Shown here one piece after another: positions 6,340 to 32,095 of a stretch of DNA of 64,000 nucleotides. Numbering within the stretch: position 1 is the first letter of the stretch; each line of letters begins with the position of its first letter. Below the pieces are notes generated by a model. That model saw only the letters and a list, made by a program, of their open reading frames with translations, had not been told where the DNA came from and made no database searches. Origin of the DNA: an uncultured delta proteobacterium (lineage in GTDB: Bacteria > Myxococcota_A > Polyangia > Polyangiales > B10-G4); the NCBI GenBank assembly GCA_963727445.1, contig CAVSGI010000013.1:145316-209315 (forward strand), written 5' to 3'. Made by a program: the position numbers and the translations under genes.

Positions 6340-6393
6340 GCCCCCCGGTACGACGCGGGGGGCGGGCCCTTTAGATCGGTCGCGAGAAAATTC

Positions 6394-6831: not shown

Positions 6832-6944
6832 GGGCTCGACCCACTGCAGGTGCCGATCCAGAAGGAAAACTCAAGAATTTCCATTTCACACATTCAGCCA
6901 CCAGGCACAGCGGGGCTCAGAAAGGCCCGAGATGACACGACGCA

Positions 6945-8804
6945 TCAGATCGGTGGACTGATCAACCGGAGGTCGAGGCCGCCGGGATAGAAGTAGCTGG
7001 TGTAGGAGCCGAAGCCGTAGACGAGGATGCCGAAGGGCGCCGTCCCCTCGATGGTGTGAACGCCGCCACGGATCGGCCGCGCCGTCCGGCTCATCGTCGT
7101 GCCCTCAATCGGCGAAAAGCCCGACACCAGCTCGCCGTCCAAAACGACGGTCGCCCCCGAGGGCGCGATGAGGTTCATCAAGCTGTCGTTGTAGGTCTCC
7201 GGCGCCAGGAAGACGTAGCTCGACCGGAACTGCTCGGTGGGAATGGCGAGGGCCATCGAAGGATCGCCGTTGCCGCGGATCCCGCCCGTGCCGATGCCGT
7301 TGTAGTCCTGTCCGACGAGGTACTGGGCGACGAGGATCGGCCCCGAGCCCGTGACCTTCACCGCCTGGTCGAGCTCCACCTCCATGAAGGCGCCGCGCTG
7401 GAGCGTCGTCGCCGGCGCGATGGCGGGCTCGAAGGTGATCTCGTTTCCCGCCGCCGCCGACACGACCCGAAGCAGGTTGGGCTCGCCGCGCAACGCGCGG
7501 GTCGGCGCGACGAGCACCTCGGTGCCGAGCGCCTCCACCGGGAAGATCGCTTCCTCGAGATGATCGCAGGCCCAGCGATCGTGCGGCACGAAGGTGCAGT
7601 CGTGGCCACCAATCACCGCCACCGGACCGGTGGCGCGGATCTCGGTGCCGGTGAGATCCCACTCGGGCCCGAGGAGGCAGTAGCTCGCGTCGTAGCCCGG
7701 CTCGTCCTCCCAGCCGCCGGGACACTCGGTCCCGGGCACGCTGGAGGCGAGCTCGAGCACGTCACCGCGCGCGAGGGTGAAGCTCTGGGTGTCGCCCGGC
7801 GCCATTCCCATCACGCCGCCCGAGCCGGTCCCGGGAAGGACGTTCGCGCTCGAGGTCACCTCCACCGTCACCGGCGCATCGTCGACGCCGACGATGGCGA
7901 CGAAGCCCGGCAGGGCGCCGTAGTCCATGCCGAGTCGCAACAGATGGGTCGGACGGCTCACGGCGAGGTAGCTGCCGGTGAGCACGTGGGCCGGCAGGAG
8001 CAGGGACGCGTCGTTGGTGAAGCTGAAGCACTCGCCGTCGCCGAGCATCTCCATCGGCTCCATCGCGCAATCTCCGTCGCGCCGGTAGTCGAGCGGGTTG
8101 AACTGGTAGACCGTGACCGGCACCTCGCTGGTGAGGTGGTAGGCGCCGTCCTGAACCAGCACCGACCCGCCGCCCGTCGGGTTTCGGAGCTCCTCCACCC
8201 ACGGGAGCTTCATCGTCTCGAGGCCGCCGGGGGCCACCGTCGCCCGTGCGACCTCGGCGCCCGCGCGCTCGATCACGACCTCGGCGTCGACCAGCGAGGG
8301 GTTGGCGACGACCACCGCGAACTCGAACTCCTGGGCGAGCTGAGAGTTGCGGGTGGTGACCGGGTAATACTCGCAGCCGATGTAGCTCTGCGAGGTCTCG
8401 GCCTCCGCGCAGAGGTCGCGGCATCCGGAGGGGCTGCAGTGCAGGCCGCCGCTCACGTCGCAGGCCTCGCCCCGGTCGAAGTCGCTTCCCTCGGGGTTAC
8501 AGACCTGTGGCGTCTCGCCATCGCAGCTCACGGTGTTCGGCACGCAGCGTCGGCAGCCGAGCCCGCGCGCGCAGACGTTGCCGCTGGCCGCGCAGTCCTC
8601 ACGGCCCTCTTCCGTGCCGTCCGCGCCACAGCTCAGAGCCGTGTCGCCGATGCAGATCAGGCCAGCAGCCATCCCCTCGCAGGGGTTGGTGACGCCGCCG
8701 TCCACCGGCGGCGGTGGCGGATGCTCGTCGCCGCAGCCCACCAAAACCGGGGTCAGAACGAGCCACGCCGCGAAGAAGCGCGAGATACGCGAGGCGGCCC
8801 CCAT
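6945..8804 (-). CDS. Large secreted lipoprotein, IgGFc-binding-like N-terminal domain family (hypothetical)
   Basis: ATG at 8804 gives MGAASRISRFFAAWLVLTPVLVGCG (lipobox). The tool's TTG at 8819 is less likely. The C-terminal GGVHTIEGTAPFGILVYGFGSYTSYFYPGGLDL is reminiscent of IgGFc_binding-type domains (from memory). Confidence 0.55.
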   Translation of the reverse strand: MGAASRISRFFAAWLVLTPVLVGCGDEHPPPPPVDGGVTNPCEGMAAGLICIGDTALSCGADGTEEGREDCAASGNVCARGLGCRRCVPNTVSCDGETPQVCNPEGSDFDRGEACDVSGGLHCSPSGCRDLCAEAETSQSYIGCEYYPVTTRNSQLAQEFEFAVVVANPSLVDAEVVIERAGAEVARATVAPGGLETMKLPWVEELRNPTGGGSVLVQDGAYHLTSEVPVTVYQFNPLDYRRDGDCAMEPMEMLGDGECFSFTNDASLLLPAHVLTGSYLAVSRPTHLLRLGMDYGALPGFVAIVGVDDAPVTVEVTSSANVLPGTGSGGVMGMAPGDTQSFTLARGDVLELASSVPGTECPGGWEDEPGYDASYCLLGPEWDLTGTEIRATGPVAVIGGHDCTFVPHDRWACDHLEEAIFPVEALGTEVLVAPTRALRGEPNLLRVVSAAAGNEITFEPAIAPATTLQRGAFMEVELDQAVKVTGSGPILVAQYLVGQDYNGIGTGGIRGNGDPSMALAIPTEQFRSSYVFLAPETYNDSLMNLIAPSGATVVLDGELVSGFSPIEGTTMSRTARPIRGGVHTIEGTAPFGILVYGFGSYTSYFYPGGLDLRLISPPI

Positions 8805-10302: not shown

Positions 10303-11715
10303 GTGAAGTCTGTCGTGAGCCTGCGGTTCGTCCTGATCGGGGCGATGGGAACGGCGTTGGGAGCCCTGACGCTCTACTTCGCCCTCGAAACCGGGCTCTC
10401 ACCGCTGATCGCCGTGGGCACCGCGCTCGCGCTGGTGTGCCTCCTCGCCATCGGCTGGGGGCGCCGCCTCGACCAGATCGTCGGCTTCCTCAAGGCCCAG
10501 TCCGAGCGCGCCGAGGTGCTGCGGCGCCTGCCGCCCATGGGCACCGACGACATCGGCAAAGCCGCGCGCGGGGTCAACACCATCCTGACCGCCACCACCG
10601 ACGCCAGCGTCGACGCCATCGACAGCTCCCTCGAGCTCGCCGAGAAGGAGCGCGAGCTGGCGCTGGCGGCGGCCCTGCAGGGCAAGACCGCCGAGCTCGA
10701 GAAGCGCCTCGGTGAGCGCGCCCTCCTCTTCGAGCTGCTCCGCGAAGCCACCGAGAACAGCAGCATGGACGAGGTGCTGCCGCCCATGGCCGGCCGCCTC
10801 GCCAAGGCGCTGCGCCTGCGTGAGGGCGCGATCCTGGTGCGCGATGGCGACCGCTTCGTGATCCGCGCCGTCCACGGCTTCTCCGATCCGGAGTCTCTGA
10901 TCGGCCGCTTCATCGAGAAGGGCGAAGGGATCAGCGGCGAGGTCACGGACGCCGCCGAACCGATCGTCATTCGTGACGTCCGCGCCGAGCCCGGCTACCT
11001 CGCGTTCTGGGGCGCTGCCGACAAGAGCGGCAGCTTCGCCGCCGTCCCCATCCGCCAGGGCGAAGAGAATCTCGGCATCCTGGCGCTGACGCGGCCGGAG
11101 GACGATCCCCTCACGGACGTCGAGGTCCGCTTCCTCAGCGCCGTCGCCGCTACCCTGGCTCTCACCATTCACCACATCGCGCTTGTGGACGAGCTTCGCG
11201 AGTCCTCGACCCACGACGAGCTCACCGGCCTCGCCAACCGCCGCCTCCTCGGAGCGCGCCTCGGACGCGAGATCGACCGGGCCCGCCGCTTCGAGTCCTC
11301 CCTCGCGGTGCTGACGCTCGACATCGACCACTTCAAGCAGCTCAACGACCGCTTCGGACACCCCACGGGGGACGCCGTGCTTCGCGACGTCGCGCGGGTC
11401 CTCGAAGAGGGGGTGCGGAGCGTCGACACCGTGGCCCGGACCGGCGGCGAGGAGTTCGTCGTGGTCCTGCCCCGAACCGACGCCGAGGCCGCTCAGCGGG
11501 TCGCCGACAAGCTGAGGGCCCGCATCGCGGCCCACGACATGGCCGGGCTCGGAGGCCAGGCCCAGGTGACGATCTCCCTCGGCGTGGCGGTCCTGACGGC
11601 CGGTGAAAGCGCAGAATCCATGCTGGCGAGGGCGGATGCCGCCCTTTACGAGGCCAAGGAAGCCGGCCGCGACCGCGTCCGTGTCTCCCGCCCCGACGGC
11701 GCTTTCGCAGCCTGA
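10303..11715 (+). CDS. Membrane-anchored GAF-GGDEF diguanylate cyclase
   Basis: GTG at 10303 with AAGAGG 8 nt upstream (ATG alternative at 10345). The tool ORF start at 10027 would run through the tRNA. Two TM segments, a GAF-like region, and a GGDEF domain with the GGEEF active site (RTGGEEFVVVL). Confidence 0.8.
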   Translation: MKSVVSLRFVLIGAMGTALGALTLYFALETGLSPLIAVGTALALVCLLAIGWGRRLDQIVGFLKAQSERAEVLRRLPPMGTDDIGKAARGVNTILTATTDASVDAIDSSLELAEKERELALAAALQGKTAELEKRLGERALLFELLREATENSSMDEVLPPMAGRLAKALRLREGAILVRDGDRFVIRAVHGFSDPESLIGRFIEKGEGISGEVTDAAEPIVIRDVRAEPGYLAFWGAADKSGSFAAVPIRQGEENLGILALTRPEDDPLTDVEVRFLSAVAATLALTIHHIALVDELRESSTHDELTGLANRRLLGARLGREIDRARRFESSLAVLTLDIDHFKQLNDRFGHPTGDAVLRDVARVLEEGVRSVDTVARTGGEEFVVVLPRTDAEAAQRVADKLRARIAAHDMAGLGGQAQVTISLGVAVLTAGESAESMLARADAALYEAKEAGRDRVRVSRPDGAFAA

Positions 11716-11849
11716 TCGGCGTTTTCGCCAACACGGCTGCAACAAAAGCGTCGCTCGCGCATACAGCAGTCGATGAGCGGTCGATCCGCATCACAATTGT
11801 CGGGGGCAACTCGCGCCCCGGGATCGATTGGAGGTAACCTCCAGCGGCC

Positions 11850-12410
11850 ATGGCCGACGGTGCCAAGAGCCCGTCCGACGAGGAGCTGATGAGCGCCTTC
11901 GTCGGCGGGGACCACGCGGCGTTTCGGGTCCTCTTCGACCGCTATGCACCCATGCTCATGCGTATGGCGAGAAGAAGGCTCAGCTCCGACGAAGAGGCCC
12001 GTGAGGTCGTCCAGCAGACCTTTTTCCAACTGAACAAGGCACGAAACGACTTCCGTCAAGGCGAGAAGCTTCGCCCCTGGGTGGTCACGATCACCATGAA
12101 TCTGATCCGCGAGCACTATCGCCGTCGCGGTCGCCGCAAGGAGTCGACGCTCGACGCGGCGATCCACACCGTCGGGGTTCAGCCCAAGGACCGCCTCGAG
12201 CAGGCGGAGCGGGAGGCGCAGCTTCGCGCGGCGATCGCACGGCTCCCCGACAGCCAGCGGACGGTGGTGGAGCTGCACTGGCTCTCGGAGCTGCCTTTCG
12301 CGGAGGTCGCCCGCATCGTGGGGGCCAAAGAAGGTGCCGTTCGCGTGCGGGCCCACCGCGCGTACAAACGACTCAAGGAGCTGCTCGAACGGGAGCTCCA
12401 AGCCCAATGA
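11850..12410 (+). CDS. ECF (sigma-70 family, group 4) RNA polymerase sigma factor
   Basis: Region 2/4 motifs (FRVLFDRYAPMLMRMARRRL..., VVELHWLSELPFAEVARIVGAKEGAVRVRAHRAYKRLK). GGAGG upstream. Confidence 0.85.
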   Translation: MADGAKSPSDEELMSAFVGGDHAAFRVLFDRYAPMLMRMARRRLSSDEEAREVVQQTFFQLNKARNDFRQGEKLRPWVVTITMNLIREHYRRRGRRKESTLDAAIHTVGVQPKDRLEQAEREAQLRAAIARLPDSQRTVVELHWLSELPFAEVARIVGAKEGAVRVRAHRAYKRLKELLERELQAQ

Positions 12411-19601: not shown

Positions 19602-21380
19602 ATGCTCCCCGCCATGCACGTCGTCGTCGCCGCCGCGACGCCCATCCTCTCGGACGCGATCGCGACGCCGCTGGCTGCGGCGGGGCACGAGGTCGAGCGT
19701 GCGGACAGCGCGGACGCGCTGAGGCAGATCCTCTCGGGCCATCCGCGTCCCGCGGCCGCCTTCATCGCCCGGCGACTCCCGGGAGGGGACGCGCTCACCC
19801 TCAGTCGCGAAGTGGAGGACGTTCCTCTGGTGCTGGTGTCCCCCGACGAGCGGGACCGCGAGGCCGCCCGCGCCGCGCGCCTGGCTGGCTTCATCCACGC
19901 ACCCTTCTCGCCCGGGGACGTGCTGGGAGCGCTGGGCGTGTCGACCCGGCACCAGCGGGTGGTCCTCCTCGTCGACGACAGCGAGCTGGTGCACAAGCAC
20001 ACCGGGCCGATCCTCGAGGAGGCCGGCTACGAAGTGGTGCACGCCTACGACGGCAAGCAGGGCCTGAGCATGCTCGACGAAGCGCGTCCCGATCTGGTGA
20101 TCACCGACGTCGAGATGCCGGAGATGGACGGCTACCAGGTGTGCGCGGCGATCAAGGACGAGCCCGACACCGCGGGCATCCCGGTGATCATCTGCTCGAG
20201 CCTGGGGGAGGCGCGCGACCTCGAGCGCGGCTTCGACGTCGGCGCCGACGACTACATCGTCAAGCCGATCGTCCCCGAGGAGCTGCTCTCGCGCGTGCGC
20301 GACCTGCTGGCGGAGCTGGCGCTCTCGGGACGCGAGCGGGTGCTGGTCGTCGACGATTCGCCGGCCATCCGCCATCTGGTGGGCGACGCCCTCACGCGTC
20401 AGGGCTTCGAGGTGACGACCGCGGTGGACGGACGGGACGGCATGGAACGTGCGCTGGCGGCCTCACCCGCGTACGAGCTGATCCTCACCGACTACGACAT
20501 GCCGCGGATGACCGGCTTCGAGATGGTGCACGCGCTCAAGCGCGAAGCCCAGACGCGCGACACGCCGGTGCTGATGCTCACCGCCCGTGACAGCCGGCGG
20601 GATCGCGCGCAGATGCGCGCCGCGGGCCTCACCGCCTATCTGGTCAAGCCCTTCACTCAGGACAAGTGCGTCGCGATGGTGGAGCGCATGCTCGCCGAGC
20701 GCCGCCTCAAGGCCTACAAGGAGGCCTCCAAGCTCTACATCTCGGACGGCGCGCGCGAAGCGGCCGAGGCGCAGGCCTCGAGCGGCGCGCTCTTCTCCTA
20801 CCGGGCCGACCACCAGCAGATGACGGTGCTCTTCAGCGACCTCTGCGGATTCACGAGCATGTCGAGCGCGATGGAGGCGCCGGAGGTGGTGGAGCTTCTC
20901 AACGGCTACTTCGACGCGATGTGCCCCGTGATCAAGGCGCGCGGGGGAGACATCGACAAGTTCATCGGCGACGCCATCATGGCGATCTTCGAGAAGTCGC
21001 AGGTCTTCGACGAGTCACACATGCTGCGGGCCGCGCGCGCCGCGTGGGAGATGCAGCAGGCGATGGCTGTGTTCAACGCCACCATCGGCAAGGATCCGCC
21101 GCTGCAGATGCGCATCGGTCTCAACACCGGGGATGCGGTGCGGGGCGACATCGGGAGCCGCTACGTGCGTCGCGACTACACGGTGATCGGCGACACGGTG
21201 AACCGCGCGCAGCGCTACGAGTCGAACGCGCCCAAGGGCGGCGTGCTGATGAGCGCCGAGCTCTACGCCCTGATCCAGGAACACGTCGTCGTCGAGCCCC
21301 TCGAGGGGCTCAAGCTCAAGGGGATCGATCGGCCGGTGACGGGTTACGTGCTCAGAGGCTTCGTGGAGGACGACGAGTGA
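19602..21380 (+). CDS. Triple-receiver response regulator fused to class III adenylyl/guanylyl cyclase (CHD) domain
   Basis: Degenerate REC1, then canonical REC2 (LLVDDSE...DLVITDVEMPEMDG...KP) and REC3 (LVVDDSP...LILTDYDMPRMTG...KP), then the CHD domain (MTVLFSDLCGFT, KFIGDAIMAIF, GLNTGDAVRGDIGS). ATG at 19602; the tool ORF extends upstream. Confidence 0.8.
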   Translation: MLPAMHVVVAAATPILSDAIATPLAAAGHEVERADSADALRQILSGHPRPAAAFIARRLPGGDALTLSREVEDVPLVLVSPDERDREAARAARLAGFIHAPFSPGDVLGALGVSTRHQRVVLLVDDSELVHKHTGPILEEAGYEVVHAYDGKQGLSMLDEARPDLVITDVEMPEMDGYQVCAAIKDEPDTAGIPVIICSSLGEARDLERGFDVGADDYIVKPIVPEELLSRVRDLLAELALSGRERVLVVDDSPAIRHLVGDALTRQGFEVTTAVDGRDGMERALAASPAYELILTDYDMPRMTGFEMVHALKREAQTRDTPVLMLTARDSRRDRAQMRAAGLTAYLVKPFTQDKCVAMVERMLAERRLKAYKEASKLYISDGAREAAEAQASSGALFSYRADHQQMTVLFSDLCGFTSMSSAMEAPEVVELLNGYFDAMCPVIKARGGDIDKFIGDAIMAIFEKSQVFDESHMLRAARAAWEMQQAMAVFNATIGKDPPLQMRIGLNTGDAVRGDIGSRYVRRDYTVIGDTVNRAQRYESNAPKGGVLMSAELYALIQEHVVVEPLEGLKLKGIDRPVTGYVLRGFVEDDE

Positions 21381-22483
21381 CGGGCGACAAGAAGAAGATC
21401 CGCGTCCTCATCGTCGACGACAGCGCCTTCATGCGCATGGCGGTCTCGAAGACCATCAGCGCCGACGAGCGCTTCGAGGTGATCGGCCAGGCGAAGGACG
21501 GGCAGGACGGGGTGGAGAAGGCCCTCGAGCTCGAGCCCGACGTCATGACGATGGACTTCAACATGCCGCGCCTGAACGGCGCGCAGGCGGTGCGTGCGAT
21601 CCTGGAGAAGCAGGCCACCCCCATCGTCATGCTCTCGGCGCACACCTACGACGGAGCCAAGGAGACCGTCGAAGCGCTCTCGGCGGGCGCGGTGGACTTC
21701 GTGACCAAACCCGATGGCGAGGTCTCGATGGATCTGAGCAGCGTCGCCGACGAGCTGCTGCGCAAGCTGAAGACGGCGAGTCGCGCGCGGCCGCAGGTAG
21801 CGCCGGCCTCGGAGCCGACGCCGAAGCCGCGCGGCATGGGCGATGTGACGCTTCGGATGCGCGTGGTGCCGCAGCCGACCGAAGAGCAACCACGCAAGCG
21901 CCAGAGCTTCGCCTCGGCCATCCTCGACCCGGCGTGCATCATCGCGATCTCGACGGGCGGGCCCTCGGCGCTCGAACGGGTGATCCCGCTCCTGCCCGCG
22001 AGCTTCGGCATGGGGACGCTCATCGTTCAGCACATGCCAGGGCACTTCACCCGCGCTCTCGCCGAACGCCTCGATCAGATGAGCGCCGTGACGGTGCGCG
22101 AAGCGCGGCCCTCGGAACGACTGGTGGCCGGGGTGGTGCTTGTCGCGCCTGGCGATCACCACGTGGTCTTCGAGAAGAACGGGATGATCAAGCTGACCCA
22201 AGGCCCACCGGTCAACGGTTGCCGCCCGAGCGCGGACGTCACGCTGCAATCGGCGGCGCCAGTCTACGGCAGCAAGCTCACCACCGTGGTGATGACGGGC
22301 ATGGGCCGCGACGGAGCCCTCGGCGCGTCGGCGGTGAAGGCGGCCGGGGGCCGCGTCCTCGCTCAGGACCGGGAGACGTCGGTTGTCTACGGCATGCCCA
22401 AGGCGGTCGCCGACATGGGCCTCGTGGACGAGGTGCTGCCCCTCGGGCGGATCGCCGCGAAGCTCGCGCGCCTCAGGACCTGA
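21377..22483 (+). CDS. cheB: Chemotaxis response regulator protein-glutamate methylesterase CheB
   Basis: GTG start at 21377 overlapping the cyclase stop (GTGA). REC domain (IRVLIVDDSAFMR...DVMTMDFNMPRLNG) and CheB methylesterase domain (IAISTGGPSALERVIP..., QHMPGHFT, catalytic Ser/His/Asp context). Confidence 0.8.
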   Translation: MTGDKKKIRVLIVDDSAFMRMAVSKTISADERFEVIGQAKDGQDGVEKALELEPDVMTMDFNMPRLNGAQAVRAILEKQATPIVMLSAHTYDGAKETVEALSAGAVDFVTKPDGEVSMDLSSVADELLRKLKTASRARPQVAPASEPTPKPRGMGDVTLRMRVVPQPTEEQPRKRQSFASAILDPACIIAISTGGPSALERVIPLLPASFGMGTLIVQHMPGHFTRALAERLDQMSAVTVREARPSERLVAGVVLVAPGDHHVVFEKNGMIKLTQGPPVNGCRPSADVTLQSAAPVYGSKLTTVVMTGMGRDGALGASAVKAAGGRVLAQDRETSVVYGMPKAVADMGLVDEVLPLGRIAAKLARLRT

Positions 22484-23009
22484 CGGCGCGCCTCTCGGCT
22501 TTGCGGAGGGTTCCGAACCACTTGGGTGCGTAGAGCATCAGCGTCAGACCGAGACCGAAGGCGAGGTGGTAGAAGGCGAACCACCAGCTGTCGAGCAACT
22601 CGGCGAGCTTCATGTTCAGCACCGGAAGGACCACGTAGGCCATCGCGACGAAGACCACCGCTCCGTAGAGTAAGCCGGAGCCGAGCAGGCCGCCGAGCGT
22701 GCGCACGCGGCGCACCGCGAACGCGAACAGGACGCCGAGCGCCCCACCGAAGACGAAGTGGATGCCGATCCCGGCCGCGGCCGCCAGACCGGGGTGCGCA
22801 GCGCTGTAGGCGCTGCCGAGGAAGGTCGAGGTGACCAGCGTGATGAGCTCGAAGCCCGAGTGGTCCTGCGCGGCGGCATTGACGACCGCCAGCATGGCGA
22901 TCAGTCCCGCCGAGACAGCACCCGCCGCGGCGCCCGCCCAAAGGCGACGCGTCCAACGGTAGTGCGGTGCCTCCCGCCGGAGCACACGTTTGGTGTCGTC
23001 GATGGTCAT
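22473..23009 (-). CDS. Hypothetical membrane protein (4-5 TM)
   Basis: ATG at 23009. Hydrophobic helices throughout. No recognisable domain. Confidence 0.5.
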   Translation of the reverse strand: MTIDDTKRVLRREAPHYRWTRRLWAGAAAGAVSAGLIAMLAVVNAAAQDHSGFELITLVTSTFLGSAYSAAHPGLAAAAGIGIHFVFGGALGVLFAFAVRRVRTLGGLLGSGLLYGAVVFVAMAYVVLPVLNMKLAELLDSWWFAFYHLAFGLGLTLMLYAPKWFGTLRKAERRAVRS

Positions 23010-23196
23010 GATGACCTGGCGGGCTGCACGTCTCGATCCACGTGCACGTTCGACCGAATGTCGTGGCTACGTAGGGAACGGACGTGGCGAGGCGCTACGG
23101 GTGTGGCACTTCGCAACGCTCTCGGCGCCACGCCCTGGCGGCAGCGCGTCGTGATGCTGGGGTGATGTGGCGCGCCGCACCACACCACCCGGCCCG

Positions 23197-24369
23197 TCAC
23201 GGCATGGTCAGCGGACACATGGGCGTGGCCGTCGTGTCCTGCAGCGGCAGGTAGTAGATGTAGGTCGCGATCGCCTCGGCGTCCTCGTCGGTCAGACCCC
23301 AATAGCCATCGGGACCGATGGGCATGGGCGGGCAGATCTCGGTGGAGGCCGTGATGACGTTCTTGATCATGGCGATGCTGTCGTACATCGTGCCGTTCAC
23401 GCCCTGGGTGATGTTCTTGGAGTGGATGGAGAGGGTGCCGCCCATGCCGTCGGGGAGGGGGAAGATGCGCCCGCCCGAGAACGCGAGAGAGACATCGATC
23501 GGCGGGGCACCCGCGACCATCTGCTCCGGGGTGTGGCACTCCATGCAGGGCGTCGCGAGATACCGCCCCTCCATCGCGACCGTGTAGAGCGGATCCGACA
23601 CGTCGAGGGTGGGCAACGGGACGTCGTCGGGACGGAGCGGCGTCACCGGGTCGGGGAAGTTCGGCATGGGGGTGATGGTGTTGTCGACCGCCGGGATGGA
23701 GCGCAGGTACGCGATGATCGCGTCGATGTCGGACTCGCTGAGCAGGCGGATCGTCCAATACGGCATGATCGGGTTCATCCGGTTCCCATCCCGATCGATA
23801 CCCGCGGTGAGGGCCACGCGGATCTCGGTGTCGGTCCACATGCCGAGGCCCGTGTCCATGTCGGGGGTGAGGTTGGGCGGGTTGATGTCGGGGATGAGCC
23901 CCATGCCCAGGTCCTCGACGCCCGAGAGACGCTGGCCGGGGATGAACATGCCGGTGCTGGGATCGCGCGGGGAGTGACAGTCGACGCAGGTCCAGACGTG
24001 GTTGACGAGGTAGTCGCCGCGTGCGACCGGATCGTAGCCGGCGTCGGCGTCGCCGCCGTCGCCGCCGTCACCACTGGCGTCACCGGCGTCGCCGCCGTCA
24101 CCAGCGCTGCCGTCGCCGCCGTCACCACTGGCGTCACCGCCGTCACCGCCGTCACCAGCGCTGCCGTCGCCGCCGTCCATCGACCCATCGGGCGTCGCGT
24201 CCATCGACCCATCGGGCGTCGCGTCCATCGACCCATCGGGCATGGCATCCATCATCGACCCGGTGTCCACCGACGAGTCGGCGACGCTGGTGTCCATCAC
24301 CATCGAGTCGTCACCGCACCCCCAAAGCCCAACGCCCACGAGCGTCGCCAAGACGATCGAAATCCGCAT
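23197..24369 (-). CDS. Di-haem c-type cytochrome lipoprotein with long acidic repeat linker
   Basis: ATG at 24369 gives MRISIVLATLVGVGLWGCGDD (lipobox). Two CxxCH motifs (CVDCH, CMECH). The N-terminal linker is encoded by tandem DNA repeats. Confidence 0.75.
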   Translation of the reverse strand: MRISIVLATLVGVGLWGCGDDSMVMDTSVADSSVDTGSMMDAMPDGSMDATPDGSMDATPDGSMDGGDGSAGDGGDGGDASGDGGDGSAGDGGDAGDASGDGGDGGDADAGYDPVARGDYLVNHVWTCVDCHSPRDPSTGMFIPGQRLSGVEDLGMGLIPDINPPNLTPDMDTGLGMWTDTEIRVALTAGIDRDGNRMNPIMPYWTIRLLSESDIDAIIAYLRSIPAVDNTITPMPNFPDPVTPLRPDDVPLPTLDVSDPLYTVAMEGRYLATPCMECHTPEQMVAGAPPIDVSLAFSGGRIFPLPDGMGGTLSIHSKNITQGVNGTMYDSIAMIKNVITASTEICPPMPIGPDGYWGLTDEDAEAIATYIYYLPLQDTTATPMCPLTMP

Positions 24370-24534
24370 TCCCAAGCCCTCCACGCGCAAGGAAGGATGC
24401 TGCCTGATCGCTCAAAATGACGCAATGGTTGCCAACGGTGAGTCACCGCTCGCGGGGTGGGTGTGTGTGCGATGGTGCGGCGACCCGTCGCGGCATGGGT
24501 GCGGGCCGTGAACGCTATCGTATACTCACGCTCC

Positions 24535-25824
24535 GTGCGTCGCTTCAGCCTCCCGCTCGCCGCCGTCTTGCTCCTCTTCACCACGTCGATGGGGTGTGGC
24601 GACGACACGACAGTGGTGGTGGACTCGGGGGTCGTCGATGTCGACACCGGCGTCTCCATGGACACCGGCACGACGATGGACTCGACCACGTCCATGGATA
24701 CGGGCACGACGATGGACAGCGGGGTCGAGGACACGGGGGTCGTCGACACCGGCCCCGAGGACACCGGCCCCCCGCCCTTCGGCCTCGAGACCCTCGTCTA
24801 CAACGAGGACTGCGTCGTCGAGGTGGTCAACCCGGACGAGACCATCGACGTCGCGATGAACATCTCCGAGACCGGCTGCTACACCGACGCGGTCGCCAAG
24901 ACCGTCGCCTCCTCCCTGGTCCCCTTCTCGATCAACTCGCCGCTGTGGACCGACGGCGTGTCGAAGCGACGCTTCTTCGCGATCCCGCCGGGCACCCACG
25001 TGGGCTATCGGGGTGACTACTCCTGGCTCTGGCCGGTGGGGACCATCCTCATGAAGGAGTTCATCCTCCAGACGGACGAGAGCGATCCCGACTCGAACTT
25101 CGTCCTCGAGACGCGCTTCCTCGTGAAGTACGACCCGCGCTTCTGGCGCGGCTACAGCTATCGATGGAACGCCGAGGGCACCGACGCCACGCTGGTGATG
25201 AACGGGACCATGGACACCCTCGTCGACTACGAGGTCACCGACACCAGCGGCGGAACGTACATGCACACTCACGTCTTTCCGGCGCGAGTCACTTGTCTTC
25301 AGTGTCACGCCCCGCGCGCCAACGGCGGCAACGGCACTCAGACGGCGCAGCTGAACCGCGACTTCGACTACACCGCCTGGGGCGGCACCGTCGACAACCA
25401 GATCCGCACCTTCGAGCACATCGGCCTCTTCGACGCTCCTCTGCCCGGGGCTCCGGAGGACCTGCCGCGGATGCCCAACCCCTCGGACACCAGCGCCTCC
25501 CTCGAAGAGCGCGCGCGCGCCTATCTCCACGCCAACTGCGCCCACTGCCACCGCGAGAACGGCTCCGCCGTCACCTCGACCCTGTGGATCCCCTGGGAAT
25601 ACACCCTCGAAGACAGCAACGCCTGCATCGGGCGCGACTCGGGGAGCACGCCGGGCGACATGTGCGAGACCCTCGACGTTCGCATCGTGCCCGGCGACTC
25701 GATGGGCTCGCTGATCCGCTGTGTCATGGAGACGGGTGCCATGCCGCCCGTCGGGACCTATGTGGCCGATCCGGCCCGACAGGTCGTCTTCGACTGGATC
25801 GACTCCCTCGCCTCATGTCCATGA
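24535..25824 (+). CDS. Putative c-type cytochrome lipoprotein (two CxxCH motifs)
   Basis: CLQCH and CAHCH haem-binding motifs. Lipobox TTSMGCG. Start ambiguous: GTG at 24535, ATG at 24472, or tool GTG at 24457. Confidence 0.65.
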   Translation: MRRFSLPLAAVLLLFTTSMGCGDDTTVVVDSGVVDVDTGVSMDTGTTMDSTTSMDTGTTMDSGVEDTGVVDTGPEDTGPPPFGLETLVYNEDCVVEVVNPDETIDVAMNISETGCYTDAVAKTVASSLVPFSINSPLWTDGVSKRRFFAIPPGTHVGYRGDYSWLWPVGTILMKEFILQTDESDPDSNFVLETRFLVKYDPRFWRGYSYRWNAEGTDATLVMNGTMDTLVDYEVTDTSGGTYMHTHVFPARVTCLQCHAPRANGGNGTQTAQLNRDFDYTAWGGTVDNQIRTFEHIGLFDAPLPGAPEDLPRMPNPSDTSASLEERARAYLHANCAHCHRENGSAVTSTLWIPWEYTLEDSNACIGRDSGSTPGDMCETLDVRIVPGDSMGSLIRCVMETGAMPPVGTYVADPARQVVFDWIDSLASCP

Positions 25825-26354
25825 GCCCGAAACCGCGCCCGGCTGCCCCGACCCCCGTCCTGGTCGCCGTTGGAATGCTGCTCGCGCTGCCCCTGCTCGT
25901 CGCGCCGAAGTGCTTCGACTACGACGGCGCGCCGCCGGTCGTGGATTCCGGCATGCCCGATGCCACGATGATGGACGGCGGGGCCATGACCGACGCCGCC
26001 GTGGACGGCGCCGTGGACGCTCCCGTCGACACGGGACCGGACTTCGTCCCCGCCGTGCCCTGCCCCGAACCGAACACCGCGGTCTTCCTGATCCGAAACC
26101 TGGCCTACAACATCGTCTGCGGCTGCGCCGAGGCGGAGGGCCGGGCGTGTACCGTGCCCCGGGGGACCACCATCATCTGGAACTTCGCCGACGGCGTGCA
26201 GCACAACGTCAGCCCCGTGGAAGACTCCTTCATGCGCTCCACCGATCGGGTCAGCGGTCGGTACGTCCAGACCTTCATGGAGCCCGGGACCTACGGCTAC
26301 GGTTGCACCCTTCATCCGAGCGAGATGAGCGGGTACTCGCTCGTCGTCGAGTGA
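25821..26354 (+). CDS. Cupredoxin (type-1 blue copper protein, plastocyanin/amicyanin-like)
   Basis: ATG at 25821 overlaps the upstream stop (ATGA); ATG at 25815 is an alternative. C-terminal copper-ligand pattern GTYGYGCTLHPSEMSG (Cys-x2-His-x4-Met). Leader PLLVAPKCFDYD. Confidence 0.7.
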   Translation: MSPKPRPAAPTPVLVAVGMLLALPLLVAPKCFDYDGAPPVVDSGMPDATMMDGGAMTDAAVDGAVDAPVDTGPDFVPAVPCPEPNTAVFLIRNLAYNIVCGCAEAEGRACTVPRGTTIIWNFADGVQHNVSPVEDSFMRSTDRVSGRYVQTFMEPGTYGYGCTLHPSEMSGYSLVVE

Positions 26355-26436
26355 ACGACCGCGCCCTCGCCTGATCGAAGCGTCCGCGGCCGTGGTGGCC
26401 TTGCCGGCGGACGGGGCGTCGTTACGGGCGCTTGTG

Positions 26437-27642
26437 ATGGACACCGACACGACGACGGAGCCGCCCCGCCGCGGGCGCCGCGTTGTCGTTCTGCGCTACG
26501 TGGCGACGTTCGCAGTGTTTCTCACCGTGCTCGGCGTGCTGGCCGGCATCAAGGGCTGGCAGATCACGACGATCGTCGCCTTCGCCGAGGATGCAGAACG
26601 GCGCGGGCCACCGCCGGATGCGGTGGCGGCGACGACCCTCTCCGAGGAGGCGTGGGAGGACCGGCTCGAGACGGTGGGGACGCTCTCGGCGCGCCAGCGC
26701 GTCGCGCTCACCAGCGAGGTGGCCGGGGAGGTGGTGCGCATCGCGTTCGACTCCGGCGACGTCGTGGAGCGAGGCGATGTGCTGGTCGTCCTCGACTCGG
26801 CGACGGATCGCGCCGACCTACGCTCGGCGGAGGCCACTGCGGAGCTCGCGGAGCTCATGGCGAATCGCACGGATGAGCTCGCCGGGCGCGGCGTCGTACC
26901 GGTCGAGGACCGGGAGCAGGCGGTCGCCGATCTCGAGACGACGCGCGCGCGCGTCTCTTCCCTGCACGCGACGCTCGCGAAGAAGACGATCCGCGCCCCC
27001 TTCTCCGGGCGGCTCGGGATCCGCAACGTCGACCTCGGTCAATACATCGCGCCAGGCACGGTGCTCACGACGCTCACGGACGCGGAGGGGACCTTCGTGG
27101 ACTTCACGATCCCCCAGGACGAGCTCGCGAGCGTGAGCCTCGGCCTGCCCGTCCGACTTTCGGCCGACCGAATCACCAGCGACGTGTCGGCGACGATCGC
27201 CGCTATCGAGCCGGACGTGGATCGGAGAACGCGTGCGGCGCGGATCCGGGCGGTGCTCGAGGGCGACTCCGAGCAGCTTCGACCGGGCATGTTCGTCGAC
27301 GTCCAGGTGGTGCTCCCGACGCGGCGCACCGCGATCGCCGCGCCCGTCACCGCCGTCGTGCACGCACCCTATGGAGACTCGGTCTACGTCCTTTCGGAGC
27401 TGCCCTCGGACGCGCCCGGCATGCGGGAGACATCCGACGGAGAGCCCATCTTCCTGGCGCGACAGACGTTCGTGCACACGGGTCGGACGCGCGGAGACTT
27501 CATCGAGATCGAAGGCGGCGTGGAGCCGGGCGCGCGGGTCGTGACCGCTGGCGCCTTCAAGCTCCACGACGGCTCGCACGTCTACCTGAGCGAAGACGTC
27601 GCTCCACGTCCGGAGCTCGAGCCCACGCCCGAGAACCGGTGA
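26437..27642 (+). CDS. RND efflux periplasmic adaptor (membrane fusion protein, HlyD family)
   Basis: Single N-terminal TM, a coiled-coil hairpin, then beta-barrel/MP-proximal domains. Immediately upstream of the RND permease. Confidence 0.8.
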   Translation: MDTDTTTEPPRRGRRVVVLRYVATFAVFLTVLGVLAGIKGWQITTIVAFAEDAERRGPPPDAVAATTLSEEAWEDRLETVGTLSARQRVALTSEVAGEVVRIAFDSGDVVERGDVLVVLDSATDRADLRSAEATAELAELMANRTDELAGRGVVPVEDREQAVADLETTRARVSSLHATLAKKTIRAPFSGRLGIRNVDLGQYIAPGTVLTTLTDAEGTFVDFTIPQDELASVSLGLPVRLSADRITSDVSATIAAIEPDVDRRTRAARIRAVLEGDSEQLRPGMFVDVQVVLPTRRTAIAAPVTAVVHAPYGDSVYVLSELPSDAPGMRETSDGEPIFLARQTFVHTGRTRGDFIEIEGGVEPGARVVTAGAFKLHDGSHVYLSEDVAPRPELEPTPENR

Positions 27643-27646
27643 ACGC

Positions 27647-30600
27647 ATGAAGTTCGCTTACCTCTTCCTCAGGCGACCGACGTTGGCGATCGTCCTGAAC
27701 GTCTTGATCGCCGTCGGTGGCATTCAAGCGATCCGGTCTCTCAGCGTCCGCCAGTATCCGAAGACCGAAAGCGCGACGATCGTGATCCGCACGGCGTACA
27801 TCGGTGCGAACGCCGACCTCGTGCGTGGATTCATCACGGTTCCCATCGAGCGCGCCGTGGCAGCCGCGGACGGCATCGACTACATCGAATCGCAGAGCGA
27901 GGAGGGCTTCTCGGAGATCGACGTGCGGCTGCGCCTCAACTTCCCGGCGACCGATGCCCTCGCGGACATCAGCTCCCGCGTCGATCAGGTGCGCGCCGAC
28001 CTGCCACCGGAAGCAGAGATCCCGACGATCACCATCGAGCCATCGGACGCACAGGTCGCGGCGATGTACATGAGCTTCGCTTCGTCCGAGTTCGAAGACA
28101 ACGAGATCACCGACTACCTGGTTCGTGAGGTCCAGCCGAGGCTCTCGGCGCTTCGTGGCGTCCAGCGCGCCGACATCCTCGGTGGTCGCACCTTCGCGAT
28201 CCGGGCGTGGCTCGATCCCGACCGAATGGCGGCGCTCGGCGTCGCGCCCGCCGACATCCGACGGGCGATCGGGGAGAACAATTATCTGGCAGCCGTCGGG
28301 GAGACGAAGGGTGCGCTGGTGCGCATCGATCTCACGGCGTCGACCGATCGGCGGTCGCTCCAGGAGTTCCGGGATCTCGTCGTCCAGAGCGATGGGGACA
28401 CGCTGGTACGGCTCTCCGACGTCGCCAACGTGGAGCTGGGCTCGGAGGACTACGATCAGGAGGTCCGGTTCTCCGGGGACGAAGCGATCTTCATGGGCGT
28501 TTGGGTCCTGCCGAACGCGAACACGCTCGAGGTGATCCAGCGCGTGCGCGCCGAGATACAGGAGGTCGAGCGGGAGCTGCCCGCCGGGATGCAGGCGCAC
28601 ATCGCGTACGACTCGACGGTCTACATCGAAGACGCGATGACCGACGTCTTCGACACGCTGCTCGAGACGATCCTCATCGTCGTCATCGTCATCACGGCGT
28701 TCCTGGGCTCTCTGAGGAGCTCGATCGTCCCGGTGATCGCGATCCCGCTGTCGCTCATCGGCGCCGTGTTCCTGATGCAGCTCTTCGGCTTCACCCTGAA
28801 CCTCCTGACGCTCCTCGCGGTCGTCTTGTCGGTCGGGCTGGTGGTCGACGACGCGATCGTCGTGGTCGAGAACGTCGATCGCCACATTCGCTCGGGGGAA
28901 TCGCGCACCCGCGCCGCAGTCAAAGCCGTTCGCGAGCTGGTCGGCCCCATCATCGCGATGACGGTCACGCTCCTCGCCGTCTACGTGCCGATCGGCTTCC
29001 AGGGCGGGCTGACCGGCGCGCTCTTCCGCGAGTTCGCCTTCACCCTCGCCGGGGCGATCTTCATCTCCGGCATCGTCGCCCTCACGCTCTCTCCCGTCAT
29101 GTCGGCCAGACTCCTGCCCGACGAGCCCGGACGCGTCGCTCGCTGGATAGCCGGGCTCTTCGAAGCCGTTCGGCTCCGGTACGTGCGCGTGCTCGACACC
29201 TCGCTTTCGATGCGACCCGCGGTCTACATCGTGTGGATCGGGCTCTCCCTCTCGACGATCCCGATGTTCATGTTCTCTCCCGTGGAGCTCGCGCCTCAGG
29301 AGGATCAGGGCGTCGTCTTCACCACCCTCGACGTCCCCGCCAACGCGTCGCTCGAACGCATCGCGAGCTGGTCACACGCGATCCAGAGCATCTTCCAGAA
29401 GGATCCCGACTACGACCACAGCTTCCAGCTCACCACGCCCAACGGAGGATTCGGCGGCTTCGTCGCCGTGCCGTGGTCTCGACGCACCCGCACCGTCTTC
29501 GACATGCAGCGTTCGATCGGCGAAGAGACGAAGGCCCTCGCCGGTGTACGCGCTCCGATGTTCCTCAGGCCCGCGCTCCCGAGTCCGGGGACGATGCCGG
29601 TCGAGGTCGTGATCACGTCGACGGCCGACCATTCGGAGATACAGCACTTCACGCAGGAGATCACCGACGAGGTGGCAGAGAGCGGGCAATTCGCGTTTCC
29701 CCCGCTCTCGAACGTGCACATCGATCGTCAGAGGAACGACTTCGTGCTCGACCGAAACCAGCTCGCGACCATGGGCATCACCATGCAGACCGTCGGCCGC
29801 GACCTCTCGTCGATGCTCTCCGGAAACTACGTCAACCGCTTCTCCCTGGACGGACGCGCTTACGAGGTCATCCCCCAGATCCAGCGAAGCTCGCGCCTGA
29901 GCCCGGAGCAGATCGAGCGGGTCCACGTCACCGGACCGGACGGCACCCTGGTGCCGCTCGGCGCCGTCTCGGCGCTTCGCCAGCACGTCGAGCCCCGAGC
30001 GTTGCCCCGCTTTCAACAGCTCAACGCGATCAAGCTCTCGGGCATCCCCACACGCTCGCTCGACGACGCGCTCACCACGATCGAGCAAGCCGCCGCCGAC
30101 ACGCTGCCCCCCGGCTATCACGTCGACTACACGGGTGAGTCCAGGCAGCTCCGCGAAGAGGGCGGCAAGTTCCTGCCCGTCTTCGGCCTCGCCATTTTGG
30201 TCGTCTTCCTGGTGCTCGCCGCGCAGCTGGACTCGTTTCGCGACCCTTTCGTGATCCTCGCGGGCTCGGTTCCGCTGGCGCTCTTCGGCGCGCTCATCTT
30301 CACCTTCCTGCACTTCGACGGACCGCCGGGCGTGCACTTCGGACTGACCGAGGGGTGGACCACGACGATGAACATCTACTCGCAGGTGGGTCTGGTCACG
30401 CTCGCCGGGCTCATCTCGAAGAACGCGATCCTCATCGTCTCCTTCGCAAACGAGCGGCAGAAGGAGGGGCTGTCGAAGGTCGATGCGGTCAGGGACGCAG
30501 CGTCGACGCGCCTGAGGCCGATCCTCATGACCACCGCCGCGACGGTGGCGGGTCACTTTCCGCTCACGCTCGTCACTGGTCCCGGCGCGGCGGCGCGAAA

Positions 30601-30733
30601 CTCGATCGGGATCGTGCTGGTCGGCGGAATGGCGATCGGAACGCTCTTCACCCTCTTCGTCGTGCCCTCCGTCTACGTCCTCGTCGCCAAGACGCGGAGC
30701 AGCCGCACGGAGCCGGAGCCAGGGCTCGGCTGA
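27647..30733 (+). CDS. RND efflux transporter permease (AcrB/HAE1 family)
   Basis: 1028 aa with 12 TM helices and canonical AcrB N-terminal sequence (MKFAYLFLRRPTLAIVLNVLI...). Confidence 0.9.
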   Translation: MKFAYLFLRRPTLAIVLNVLIAVGGIQAIRSLSVRQYPKTESATIVIRTAYIGANADLVRGFITVPIERAVAAADGIDYIESQSEEGFSEIDVRLRLNFPATDALADISSRVDQVRADLPPEAEIPTITIEPSDAQVAAMYMSFASSEFEDNEITDYLVREVQPRLSALRGVQRADILGGRTFAIRAWLDPDRMAALGVAPADIRRAIGENNYLAAVGETKGALVRIDLTASTDRRSLQEFRDLVVQSDGDTLVRLSDVANVELGSEDYDQEVRFSGDEAIFMGVWVLPNANTLEVIQRVRAEIQEVERELPAGMQAHIAYDSTVYIEDAMTDVFDTLLETILIVVIVITAFLGSLRSSIVPVIAIPLSLIGAVFLMQLFGFTLNLLTLLAVVLSVGLVVDDAIVVVENVDRHIRSGESRTRAAVKAVRELVGPIIAMTVTLLAVYVPIGFQGGLTGALFREFAFTLAGAIFISGIVALTLSPVMSARLLPDEPGRVARWIAGLFEAVRLRYVRVLDTSLSMRPAVYIVWIGLSLSTIPMFMFSPVELAPQEDQGVVFTTLDVPANASLERIASWSHAIQSIFQKDPDYDHSFQLTTPNGGFGGFVAVPWSRRTRTVFDMQRSIGEETKALAGVRAPMFLRPALPSPGTMPVEVVITSTADHSEIQHFTQEITDEVAESGQFAFPPLSNVHIDRQRNDFVLDRNQLATMGITMQTVGRDLSSMLSGNYVNRFSLDGRAYEVIPQIQRSSRLSPEQIERVHVTGPDGTLVPLGAVSALRQHVEPRALPRFQQLNAIKLSGIPTRSLDDALTTIEQAAADTLPPGYHVDYTGESRQLREEGGKFLPVFGLAILVVFLVLAAQLDSFRDPFVILAGSVPLALFGALIFTFLHFDGPPGVHFGLTEGWTTTMNIYSQVGLVTLAGLISKNAILIVSFANERQKEGLSKVDAVRDAASTRLRPILMTTAATVAGHFPLTLVTGPGAAARNSIGIVLVGGMAIGTLFTLFVVPSVYVLVAKTRSSRTEPEPGLG

Positions 30734-30886
30734 GCCGCTCGAGGGCCGGGCCCCAGCGCTCGAATGAGGCGTGGGATGGGCTGCGCCCTCCGTTGCCGGG
30801 TCTTGGCGCGGGCCTGACCGGGCCCCGAATGCACCCTTCATCCAGTCGCGCGGAGCGGCTACTCTCGCCCGGTCGGTGGCGGAGGG

Positions 30887-32095
30887 ATGATAGGCAGCCG
30901 AAAAGGGATCGTCGGGCTCATCGCCTTCGCGGCCGTGCTCGCGCTCTGGCCGGCGGGGGAGGCGCACGCCATCCCCGCGTTCGCGCGGACCTACAACGTC
31001 CCCTGCGCCAGCTGTCACTCCTTCATCACGCGCCGCAACGAGTTCGGTGACGTCTTCCGCAAGAGCGGCTTTCGCTGGCCGCTCATGGCCGAGGGCGGGA
31101 GCCCGGAGCTCGAGGTCACCGAGCTCAAGGGGATCGGCCTGCTCGACGCGTGGCTCCCTCGGACGGTCCCGATCTCGGTGGAGGGCGCGCTCTCGGGTTC
31201 GGTGAGCACCGATCCCGACGCCGAGCCCATCACCATCGGCACGCCGGCCCTCACCCTCATCTCGGGCGCCGCATTTGGCGAGCACGTCTCGCTCTTCGGT
31301 CGCTTCAGCACCACCGGCCCACCGGCGGAGCTCTACGTCCACTTCGCGCGGCTCGGCGACTTACCCGAGCTCAACCTGCGCGCTGGCTACTTCGAACAGA
31401 CGACGACGCAGTTCCGACCGAACGAGAACCTCCTCGGGAGCTATCTCCACGGCACGTCGGCGATCAGCGGCTTCATACCATCGCAAGCGCGCGGCGGCAT
31501 CGAGGCCAACGGCGTCTTACGCTTCCTGGGCTCGCGCACCTTCTACGCCGGCGGCATCGTTCAGAACGCCGACCTCGGCTCGAACATGGACGGGTACTTC
31601 CGTCTCGAGCAGAAGATCGGAGGCATCAACCTGTTGGGCCAGGAACCCGAGATCGACCTCATGGAGGAGGAGTCCTTCTTCGACCAGGTCTACGCCACTG
31701 TCGCGGGGTGGTGCTACTTCGGGCGGGTGGGGGACATCACCGGGTTCAACACCCACCGGATCCGGCGCTTCGCCCTCGAAGGGTCGCTCTACGTCCATGG
31801 CTTCACGCTCCAGGGCGCGATGATGTTGGGCTTCGACGACGAGGTCCGCACGAACCGCGCGATCAACAGCGTCTCGTGGTTCCTCGAGGCCCAGTACCCG
31901 ATCGCCTCCTGGCTCTCGGTCGTCTACATCTACCAGTATCAGGATTCGAACGATCTGATGCGCGAGCGGCAACAGCACGACGCCGGCATCATCGCGCTCA
32001 TCACCGAGAACGTGCGAACGCGCCTCAAGTTCTCCTACTCGGACGACGGCGTCAAAAACGACATCGTCGAGCTCCAGATCCTGGCGGCGATGTGA
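30887..32095 (+). CDS. Secreted putative outer-membrane beta-barrel-like protein carrying an N-terminal CxxCH haem motif (hypothetical)
   Basis: Signal peptide ending AHA. YNVPCASCHSF lies just after the cleavage site. The remainder has alternating hydrophobic/polar beta-strand character. It is not TolC-like. Confidence 0.5.
   Translation: MIGSRKGIVGLIAFAAVLALWPAGEAHAIPAFARTYNVPCASCHSFITRRNEFGDVFRKSGFRWPLMAEGGSPELEVTELKGIGLLDAWLPRTVPISVEGALSGSVSTDPDAEPITIGTPALTLISGAAFGEHVSLFGRFSTTGPPAELYVHFARLGDLPELNLRAGYFEQTTTQFRPNENLLGSYLHGTSAISGFIPSQARGGIEANGVLRFLGSRTFYAGGIVQNADLGSNMDGYFRLEQKIGGINLLGQEPEIDLMEEESFFDQVYATVAGWCYFGRVGDITGFNTHRIRRFALEGSLYVHGFTLQGAMMLGFDDEVRTNRAINSVSWFLEAQYPIASWLSVVYIYQYQDSNDLMRERQQHDAGIIALITENVRTRLKFSYSDDGVKNDIVELQILAAM

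Follow-up and report, generated by a model that had tools for sequence, protein, structure and literature searches.

This study concerns a 64,000-nucleotide stretch of contig CAVSGI010000013.1 from an uncultured delta proteobacterium (hereafter, the window), in which the gene for a receiver-containing class III nucleotidyl cyclase overlaps the gene for the methylesterase/deamidase CheB. We propose that cyclase and cheB constitute a translationally coupled two-gene module which would provide both the output, predicted to be cyclic AMP (cAMP), and the adaptation function, via CheB, of a chemosensory pathway resembling the Wsp system of Pseudomonas; that such 'alternative cellular function' pathways employing this module are widespread in Polyangia; and that in the window the module is detached from the chemosensory core. 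To this reading, including its statements on coupling and distribution, we assign a probability of roughly 60%. The features of the pair are as follows.

19602 to 21380, plus strand: response-regulator gene for a predicted adenylate cyclase, 592 residues (open reading frame, third-codon-position G+C (GC3) gene call, Pfam)
19614 to 19955, plus strand: N-terminal domain classed as a pseudo-receiver, residues ~5-118 (hhalign against REC2 and REC3)
19962 to 20300, plus strand: receiver domain 2 (REC2), residues 121-233, predicted acceptor Asp169 (Pfam Response_reg)
20337 to 20681, plus strand: receiver domain 3 (REC3), residues ~246-360, predicted acceptor Asp297 (Pfam and NCBIfam, second stretch)
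20805 to 21356, plus strand: class III (IIIb-like) cyclase catalytic domain, residues 402-585 (Pfam Guanylate_cyc)
21365 to 21380, plus strand: coupling junction, with GGAGG at 21365-21369, a 7-nucleotide spacer, GTG at 21377-21379 and TGA at 21378-21380
21377 to 22483, plus strand: cheB, 368 residues, with a receiver (Response_reg, residues 10-112) and a methylesterase/deamidase domain (CheB_methylest, residues 188-363) (Pfam, NCBIfam, GC3 gene call)

The class III identity of the catalytic domain, which an earlier sequence-only reading of this DNA had proposed, is borne out by a Guanylate_cyc (PF00211) match of 91.6 bits, against a cut-off of 21.9, that spans profile positions 4-182 of 183, and by the invariance of D413, K453, D457, R504, T527, N534 and R538 in all 79 of the family members over which residue conservation in the cyclase was scored. 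The best matches in the PDB are to Pseudomonas aeruginosa CyaB (3R5G) and Spirulina CyaC (1WC0/1WC1), with the equivalents of which the metal-binding residues D413 and D457 and the transition-state residues N534 and R538 align. With respect to nucleotide specificity, K453 (in DKFIGDA) and T527 (in RRDYTVIGDTVN) have as their aligned counterparts the motifs DKFVGDA and DFTAIG of CyaC 1WC1. In the established classification, Lys together with Thr, the latter replacing the Asp of class IIIa, mark the specificity positions of class IIIb adenylate cyclases. The K453/T527 pair thus corresponds to a class IIIb adenylate cyclase signature, on which basis cAMP is the predicted product, probably formed from ATP by a homodimer. 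The ambiguity in the earlier description of a cAMP/cGMP synthase is in this way narrowed to the adenylate type. We consider it very unlikely that the protein is a guanylate or promiscuous cyclase of the same architecture, with cyclic GMP (cGMP) rather than cAMP as its messenger. Although the second-best PDB match, 2W01, is labelled in its entry as an adenylate cyclase but is presumably the Synechocystis guanylate cyclase Cya2, and although sequence cannot prove nucleotide specificity, Lys453 and Thr527 are as in CyaC and CyaB, whereas 2W01 has Glu and Gly at the equivalent positions, and both the Lys and the Thr are invariant (79/79) in the family.

Upstream of the catalytic domain, the protein had been described as carrying three receivers. 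Three receiver folds are indeed present, but Pfam identifies Response_reg (PF00072) only twice and the N-terminal domain is without phosphorylation residues. The receiver-like fold of residues 1-118 is supported by hhalign (probability 96%; E 2.5e-9 with REC2 and 8.5e-10 with REC3), the Pfam receiver match being weak (E=0.067), and, relative to a functional receiver, Asp-Asp is replaced by Ala-Ala, the acceptor Asp by Ala and the Lys by Ala. By these substitutions the domain is a pseudo-receiver, lacking the residue quintet associated with phosphorylation. The quintets of REC2 (D125/D126/D169/S199/K221) and REC3 (D251/D252/D297/T327/K349) are both complete; in REC2, D125, D126, D169 and K221 are invariant (79/79), with position 199 being Ser in 78 proteins and Thr in 1, and in REC3, D251, D252, D297 and K349 are likewise invariant (79/79), with position 327 being Thr in 76 and Ser in 3. 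Judged by these residues, the cyclase protein is one with two phosphorylatable receivers, with D169 and D297 as the putative acceptors. Most of the α1 region in both receivers (e.g. H131, H133, R257 and H258) is also invariant across all three clades of the family, an observation that fits, and argues for, a conserved type of phosphodonor.

Full-length homologues of the cyclase number more than 780 (at least 55% identity, ~585-590 residues), and the identical 592-residue protein is present in public data (P0001). Every lineage-named homologue derives from a Myxococcota/Polyangia metagenome-assembled genome, and the cyclase-cheB family, as far as these assignments indicate, appears restricted to Polyangia. 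The start of the cyclase is ambiguous, in that public pipelines call both 592- and 588-residue versions; the alternative start, ATG at 19614 (MHVVV), lies four codons later, matches the start of most homologues and is the one that they favour.

The junction between the two genes reads GGAGG-acgacga-GTGA, with the GTG of cheB and the TGA of the cyclase sharing TG. The earlier claim that the cyclase stop overlaps the GTG start of a complete CheB stands, both in the sequence itself and because an independent gene caller gives the same 368-residue CheB on a Logan contig. Profile searches found both of the expected CheB domains, the CheB_methylest (PF01339) match scoring 205 bits and that to NCBIfam PRK00742 394.4 bits, against a cut-off of 293, and residues of the protein align with the catalytic triad (S164, H190 and D286) and receiver (D10, D11 and D56) residues of Escherichia coli CheB. 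Across the 76 orthologues over which CheB residues were scored, the triad Ser and His are kept in 76/76, and the equivalents of Asp286 and D56 in 75/76; by alignment, the CheB of the window is complete, with its catalytic triad intact. Other starts for cheB were considered and rejected; downstream candidates truncate the receiver, upstream candidates extend into the cyclase frame, and the homologues give no support for either. A start further downstream, on which the sequence-only reading would have given up the coupling, is not plausible, because the next in-frame ATG would delete strand β1 and the Asp-Asp pair of the CheB receiver; re-annotation therefore cannot remove the coupling. A scan for promoters and terminators in the GC-rich DNA of the window (G+C about 68-70%) gave nothing usable. 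At its 3' end cheB overlaps by 11 nucleotides (22473-22483) a convergent minus-strand gene for a membrane protein (22473-23009, weak DUF1440 match), which suggests that the transcription unit in the window probably ends at cheB, unlike that in the closest relative (L087, a JGI contig of 112 kb, of which ~29 kb was covered).

Relatives of the locus were collected in a scan of one genome per species, which gave 497 loci; the best 80 of these 497, each with 10-kb flanks, were compared. In 72/80 loci cheB lies downstream of the cyclase on the same strand, at a distance of at most 1.3 kb, and of the other eight, three run into the end of their contig, four carry cheB a few kb away and one is a true loss. 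Apart from the pair, no gene of the window is conserved across the 80 loci, some upstream synteny being seen only with the closest relative in the genome collection. Pairwise distances for cyclase and CheB are correlated (r=0.85 overall; range 0.85-0.96), with CheB being under constraint. The frequency of the pairing, the changing nature of the other neighbours and the correlated divergence together argue for a conserved functional gene pair as opposed to a chance adjacency, and the persistence of the pairing while other neighbours differ supports the earlier proposal of a co-expressed functional unit. It could be argued that the CheB serves an unrelated chemotaxis system with its genes in another place and that the overlap is without functional meaning, since no other che core genes are nearby and, in GC-rich genomes, start and stop codons often overlap by four bases. 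The comparative data effectively refute this proposal, leaving it almost no probability: the pair is present in 72 loci from several families with otherwise changing neighbours, its two members have diverged in a correlated manner, and the identical overlap recurs in nearly all loci of the operon type described below.

Comparison of the loci reveals three arrangements in which cyclase and cheB are close together.

Type I, 25 loci: cheW, mcp (methyl-accepting chemotaxis protein (MCP), with HAMP and MCPsignal domains), cheR, cheA (Hpt, H-kinase_dim, HATPase_c, CheW and a fused receiver), cyclase, cheB
Type II, 34 loci: cyclase, gene for a secreted protein of ~213 residues, cheB; without the che core
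Type III, 13 loci counting the window (12 related loci): direct cyclase-cheB pair; without the che core

The type I operon, which occurs in Kofleriaceae, Haliangiales and part of Polyangiaceae, was seen by tblastn, by Pfam and in independent gene calls on two large contigs. When its CheA was used to look for a che core lacking cheB in genomes with detached pairs, the best 120 matches were taken up by operon-type orthologues (identity 61% or higher). The exact 4-nucleotide overlap of cyclase stop and cheB start is present in 24/25 type I loci, and also in L016 and in L087 (as TTGA in the latter), implying that it is not a chance feature. The description of the CheB as an orphan consequently applies to the window locus only, the same pair being the 3' end of a complete che operon in 25 related loci, and from this position the most parsimonious role for CheB would be the canonical one, i.e. 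feedback by demethylation/deamidation of receptors. In a midpoint-rooted neighbour-joining tree, the clade that includes the window (clade A, all of type III) is sister to the type I clade, and two detached pairs (L016 and L047) are nested within the operon clade, revealing that detachment from the operon does happen. In one operon-type locus (L044) the CheR (6216-7655; 479 residues) has a weak C-terminal STAS-like match (E ~8e-4) and not a tetratricopeptide repeat (TPR) tail of the kind known from many che clusters with alternative functions.

The spacer gene of ~213 codons that separates cyclase and cheB in type II loci (at 11769-12410 in L003/L026, and in 33 other type II loci) characterises one whole clade. 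It moved together with cheB in L046 and L063 and stayed with the cyclase in L040 while cheB moved; in L025, the single true loss of cheB, neither cheB nor the spacer gene is present although the sequence runs on for 10 kb past the cyclase, which makes this locus a natural comparison lacking cheB. A signal peptide and the lack of a Pfam match indicate that its product is a secreted protein; on the same grounds, and given its absence from the window, it was rejected as a candidate CheB substrate or Che accessory protein.

With respect to mechanism, we infer that a CheA-type kinase carrying a phosphoryl group on its Hpt/P1 domain would phosphorylate Asp169 and/or Asp297 of the cyclase. Phosphorylation would then relieve, or otherwise alter, the hold of the receiver stack, including the pseudo-receiver, on the class IIIb domains, by way of dimerisation or active-site geometry, and the homodimeric cyclase would produce cAMP. 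The same kinase would phosphorylate CheB, the methylesterase/deamidase domain of which would reset the receptors, so providing feedback adaptation. In the lineage of the window, the che core may be elsewhere in the genome, or the pair may be served by an unusual HAMP-containing kinase encoded at 32092-35442. The proposal in the sequence-only reading of a use in signalling other than chemotaxis is supported, in the sense of a non-motility function, because the output domain is a nucleotide cyclase.

Among known systems, the proposed pathway matches in its logic Wsp (WspA-F and WspR of Pseudomonas), which is likewise of Che type with a non-motility output, employs a hybrid CheA with a receiver (WspE) and an MCP/CheW/CheR core, and has its CheB (WspF) encoded beside WspR, a regulator with an output domain that synthesises a nucleotide second messenger. 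The same set of parts is found in the operon-type relatives. The two differ in that the output domain of WspR is GGDEF, whereas here it is a predicted class III adenylate-type cyclase (PF00211) preceded by two receivers and a pseudo-receiver, in that the L044 CheR has the STAS-like rather than a TPR tail, and in that the window locus is without core genes. The Pil-Chp/CyaB system of P. aeruginosa is also chemosensory, has its own CheB (ChpB) and CheR (PilK) and, among its outputs, includes cAMP made by a class IIIb cyclase; CyaB, however, is not a response regulator, being activated indirectly via the CheY-like PilG and accessory proteins. With the receivers fused to the cyclase, as is the case here, control would be direct, unlike that of CyaB. 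Control of PilJ methylation by PilK and ChpB has been described (PMC12129077). CyaC of Spirulina/Anabaena resembles the present cyclase in its class IIIb catalytic domain and Lys/Thr specificity pair, but has its own histidine kinase domain and no link to CheB or Che operons. CyaC is, moreover, regulated through receiver domains that form part of the same protein chain, as is proposed here.

The closest precedent for a receiver-cyclase in a Che context is an entry in Table S2 of the census of Munoz-Martinez et al. (2012), a receiver-class III 'mononucleotidyl cyclase' of the delta proteobacterium NaphS2 (D8FCI6) in a che cluster (PMC3447774). As here, a receiver-cyclase regulator is found inside an 'alternative cellular function' che cluster; the NaphS2 protein differs in having a single receiver and in belonging to a cluster with cheR-TPR, and it is a census listing without experiment, with neither cyclase-cheB coupling nor detached pairs being mentioned. 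Our search of the literature on orphan CheB proteins and on Che systems with adenylate cyclase regulators found this census entry only, and no functional study. What would be new is a variation on known Che-type pathways, the output being a fusion of receivers and adenylate cyclase which in the window is apparently coreless and near an unusual CheA-like kinase.

Neither CheW, CheR nor MCP was found in the 64-kb window, either in Pfam scans of its ~45 predicted proteins or by tblastn over all six frames with the Che proteins of E. coli and of related myxobacterial operons. The earlier statement that genes for CheA, CheW, CheR and MCP are lacking within 20 kb therefore holds, over the full 64 kb, for the latter three, but needs qualifying for CheA, because a CheA-related kinase is encoded 9.6 kb downstream of the pair. 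Since, except for this kinase, the CheA/CheW/MCP core is absent from the locus, we regard the window locus as a detached part rather than as a che cluster. The kinase and the genes associated with it are as follows.

32092 to 35442, plus strand: CheA-related sensor kinase without P5, 1116 residues (Pfam; PDB matches)
30887 to 32095, plus strand: X399, secreted protein with a CASCH haem motif, its stop overlapping the kinase start (translation)
24457 to 26354, plus strand: X414, lipoprotein with two CXXCH motifs, and X173, cupredoxin-like protein (tblastn)

The kinase has an N-terminal transmembrane region, HAMP (residues 323-371), Hpt/P1 (549-642; Pfam Hpt, 60 bits) and P3/P4 (910-1110; Pfam HATPase_c, 66 bits) domains, and its best PDB matches are exclusively to CheA, from E. 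coli and Thermotoga (P1, E ~1e-9; P3/P4, E ~1e-40). It shares with canonical CheA the Hpt/P1 domain and the P3/P4 dimerisation/ATPase core, but differs in being without P2 and P5 and in having an N-terminal transmembrane sensor with HAMP; the protein stops right after HATPase_c, and no match to a CheW-like P5 was seen even at E<=10. The lack of P5 implies that it would not dock via CheW to receptor arrays and would instead sense directly. The family is rare, with 11 proteins being found at E<=1e-50.

In L087/L088, the genes for cyclase, CheB, X414, X173, X399 and the kinase are contiguous and co-directional, with gaps of at most 39 nucleotides or overlaps, an arrangement which makes the kinase a plausible, though putative, phosphodonor for the receivers of the cyclase and CheB. 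The cyclase and kinase of the window are 90% and 73% identical, respectively, to those of L087, relative to which two blocks are inserted in the window: one at 22473-24390, with two minus-strand genes, for the DUF1440-like membrane protein and a cytochrome c, and one at 26392-30733, with an HlyD-AcrB (CusBA-like) efflux pair. X399 is directly upstream of the kinase in L087 (81% identity), L089 (59%) and L090 (43%), and is thus a conserved partner gene, while X414 and X173 are 67% and 66% identical to their L087 counterparts (tblastn), their Pfam matches to Cytochrom_C and Copper-bind being weak. We suggest that 24457-35442 comprises a rare sensor-kinase module, likely consisting of X414 (di-haem), X173, X399 and the P5-less kinase. 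The efflux pair, which lies inside the module in the window and is absent there in L087, and the periplasmic proteins of redox and copper type point jointly to a role in sensing copper or redox state.

A different kinase is found beside the pair in other members of clade A, i.e. a PAS-HisKA-HATPase-REC hybrid that adjoins it in 7/12 loci, either directly downstream of cheB or divergently upstream. This hybrid kinase, encoded at 7111-8607 in L004, at 13385-14875 in L009 and upstream on the opposite strand in L010-L014, is absent from the corresponding positions in the window.

Several observations weigh against the proposal that the window pair is the detached output and adaptation module of a Wsp-like pathway. 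Under midpoint rooting it is ambiguous whether the operon or the pair is ancestral. No MCP, CheR or CheW was found in the window, in the ~29 kb covered for L087 or, in any of the 12 clade A loci, up to a distance of 10 kb, such that a receptor substrate for the window CheB is assumed and not seen. The ratio of CheB to cyclase divergence is 1.02 in operons, compared with 1.21 and 1.40 in detached pairs, i.e. CheB evolves somewhat faster when detached. The neighbouring kinase also varies, being CheA-REC in clade B and the PAS-HisKA hybrid in the 7 of 12 clade A loci, and, as the P5-less kinase accompanies the pair in no locus other than the window and that of a single relative, the link between them is based on two closely related genomes. 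In addition, the P5-less kinase seems to be equipped with a CheY-like receiver and a CheX-like partner of its own, since in the distant relative L090 its gene is followed by genes for a CheY-like receiver and then a CheX-domain protein, homologues of both of which are encoded in the window.

Some of these observations would be accommodated if the pair were a portable module that plugs into different kinases, with a CheB that acts on, or together with, the cyclase or another protein that is not an MCP. In the core-less clades, this possibility envisages a self-contained pair fed by PAS-HisKA hybrids or by P5-less CheA, with a target for CheB that is not a chemoreceptor and may be the cyclase or the kinase. 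In favour of it, the pair is retained alongside three different types of kinase, and throughout two clades no MCP, CheR or CheW is encoded within 10 kb; where the che core is lacking, CheB stays with the cyclase rather than with core genes, and the rise in the divergence ratio from 1.02 to 1.21-1.40 outside the operon fits an altered constraint. We nonetheless consider it unlikely, both as a general account and for the core-less clades, because in 25 loci the pair is found with MCP and CheR, i.e. with the canonical substrate system, because translational coupling at the 3' end of an operon would also explain why the two genes stay together, and because no MCP-type methylation motif is present in the window cyclase or the CheA-like kinase, or in 77/79 of the family cyclases. 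The last of these tests is a weak one: a scan of the cyclase, CheB, the CheA-like kinase and X399 found no motif but, of the controls, E. coli Tar gave 4 and the MCP of the operon itself gave 0 with the strict motif employed. We know of no characterised CheB substrate other than MCPs. If correct, the portable arrangement would be the first case of a CheB with a non-MCP substrate, and would define a chemoreceptor-free 'CheA to cAMP' pathway.

The sequence-only reading had suggested that CheB might compete with the cyclase receivers for phosphoryl groups. In its strong form, in which CheB mainly serves as a sink for the phosphoryl groups of a shared kinase, this idea draws on the presence of intact receivers in both proteins, encoded on one coupled message, on the receiver already fused to operon-type CheA and on precedent, sink receivers being established in other Che systems. 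The methylesterase domain would, however, be needless for such a role, yet its triad is kept in 75-76/76 orthologues, and in the operon-type loci the CheA-fused receiver could itself already act as a sink. CheB may well compete incidentally, but this leaves the conservation of the triad unexplained, and the idea is therefore not supported; as the principal function of CheB we judge it improbable.

Che pathways with non-motility outputs are common, but few of the outputs have been worked out, with Wsp, which controls cyclic di-GMP, being the textbook case. The cyclase-cheB family, if the proposed assignment as an output and adaptation module is correct, would be a cAMP counterpart of Wsp, with a class IIIb adenylate cyclase and its receivers joined in one protein. 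The family is large: its protein clusters number more than 780, and the genomes chosen to represent species contain 497 loci. The retention of the coupling where the genes for receptor, CheR, CheW and CheA are gone raises the question of whether CheB always needs a chemoreceptor, and the P5-less CheA-like sensor kinase, with its rare architecture, could reveal how a CheA-type kinase acts without receptor arrays.

The homologues in the window of the L090 receiver and CheX-domain genes are the following.

58429 to 58788, plus strand: single-domain CheY-like receiver (Pfam Response_reg, 97.7 bits)
56044 to 56952, minus strand: CheX-domain protein, 303 residues (Pfam CheX, 29.5 bits, cut-off 27)

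The receiver is 88% identical to that of L087 and 44% identical to that of L090, and the CheX-domain protein 77% and 27% identical, respectively (tblastn). A second CheX-domain protein is encoded at 60454-61335 (plus strand), and a PAS-HisKA kinase gene (58798-60246, minus strand) adjoins the receiver gene and those for both CheX-domain proteins. The window may thus encode a dispersed CheA-like/CheY/CheX system without receptors.

At 10303-12410, i.e. 7-9 kb upstream of the pair, are genes for a GAF-GGDEF diguanylate cyclase and an ECF-type sigma factor; this region is syntenic in the two closest relatives (L015 and L088), placing a second nucleotide-messenger enzyme in the neighbourhood of the pair. 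Two Ser/Thr protein kinases are also encoded on the minus strand of the window (1814-5488 and 61990-62853), one of which is a Pkinase-AAA_16-TPR protein of 1224 residues; such kinases are typical of signalling-rich myxobacterial genomes.

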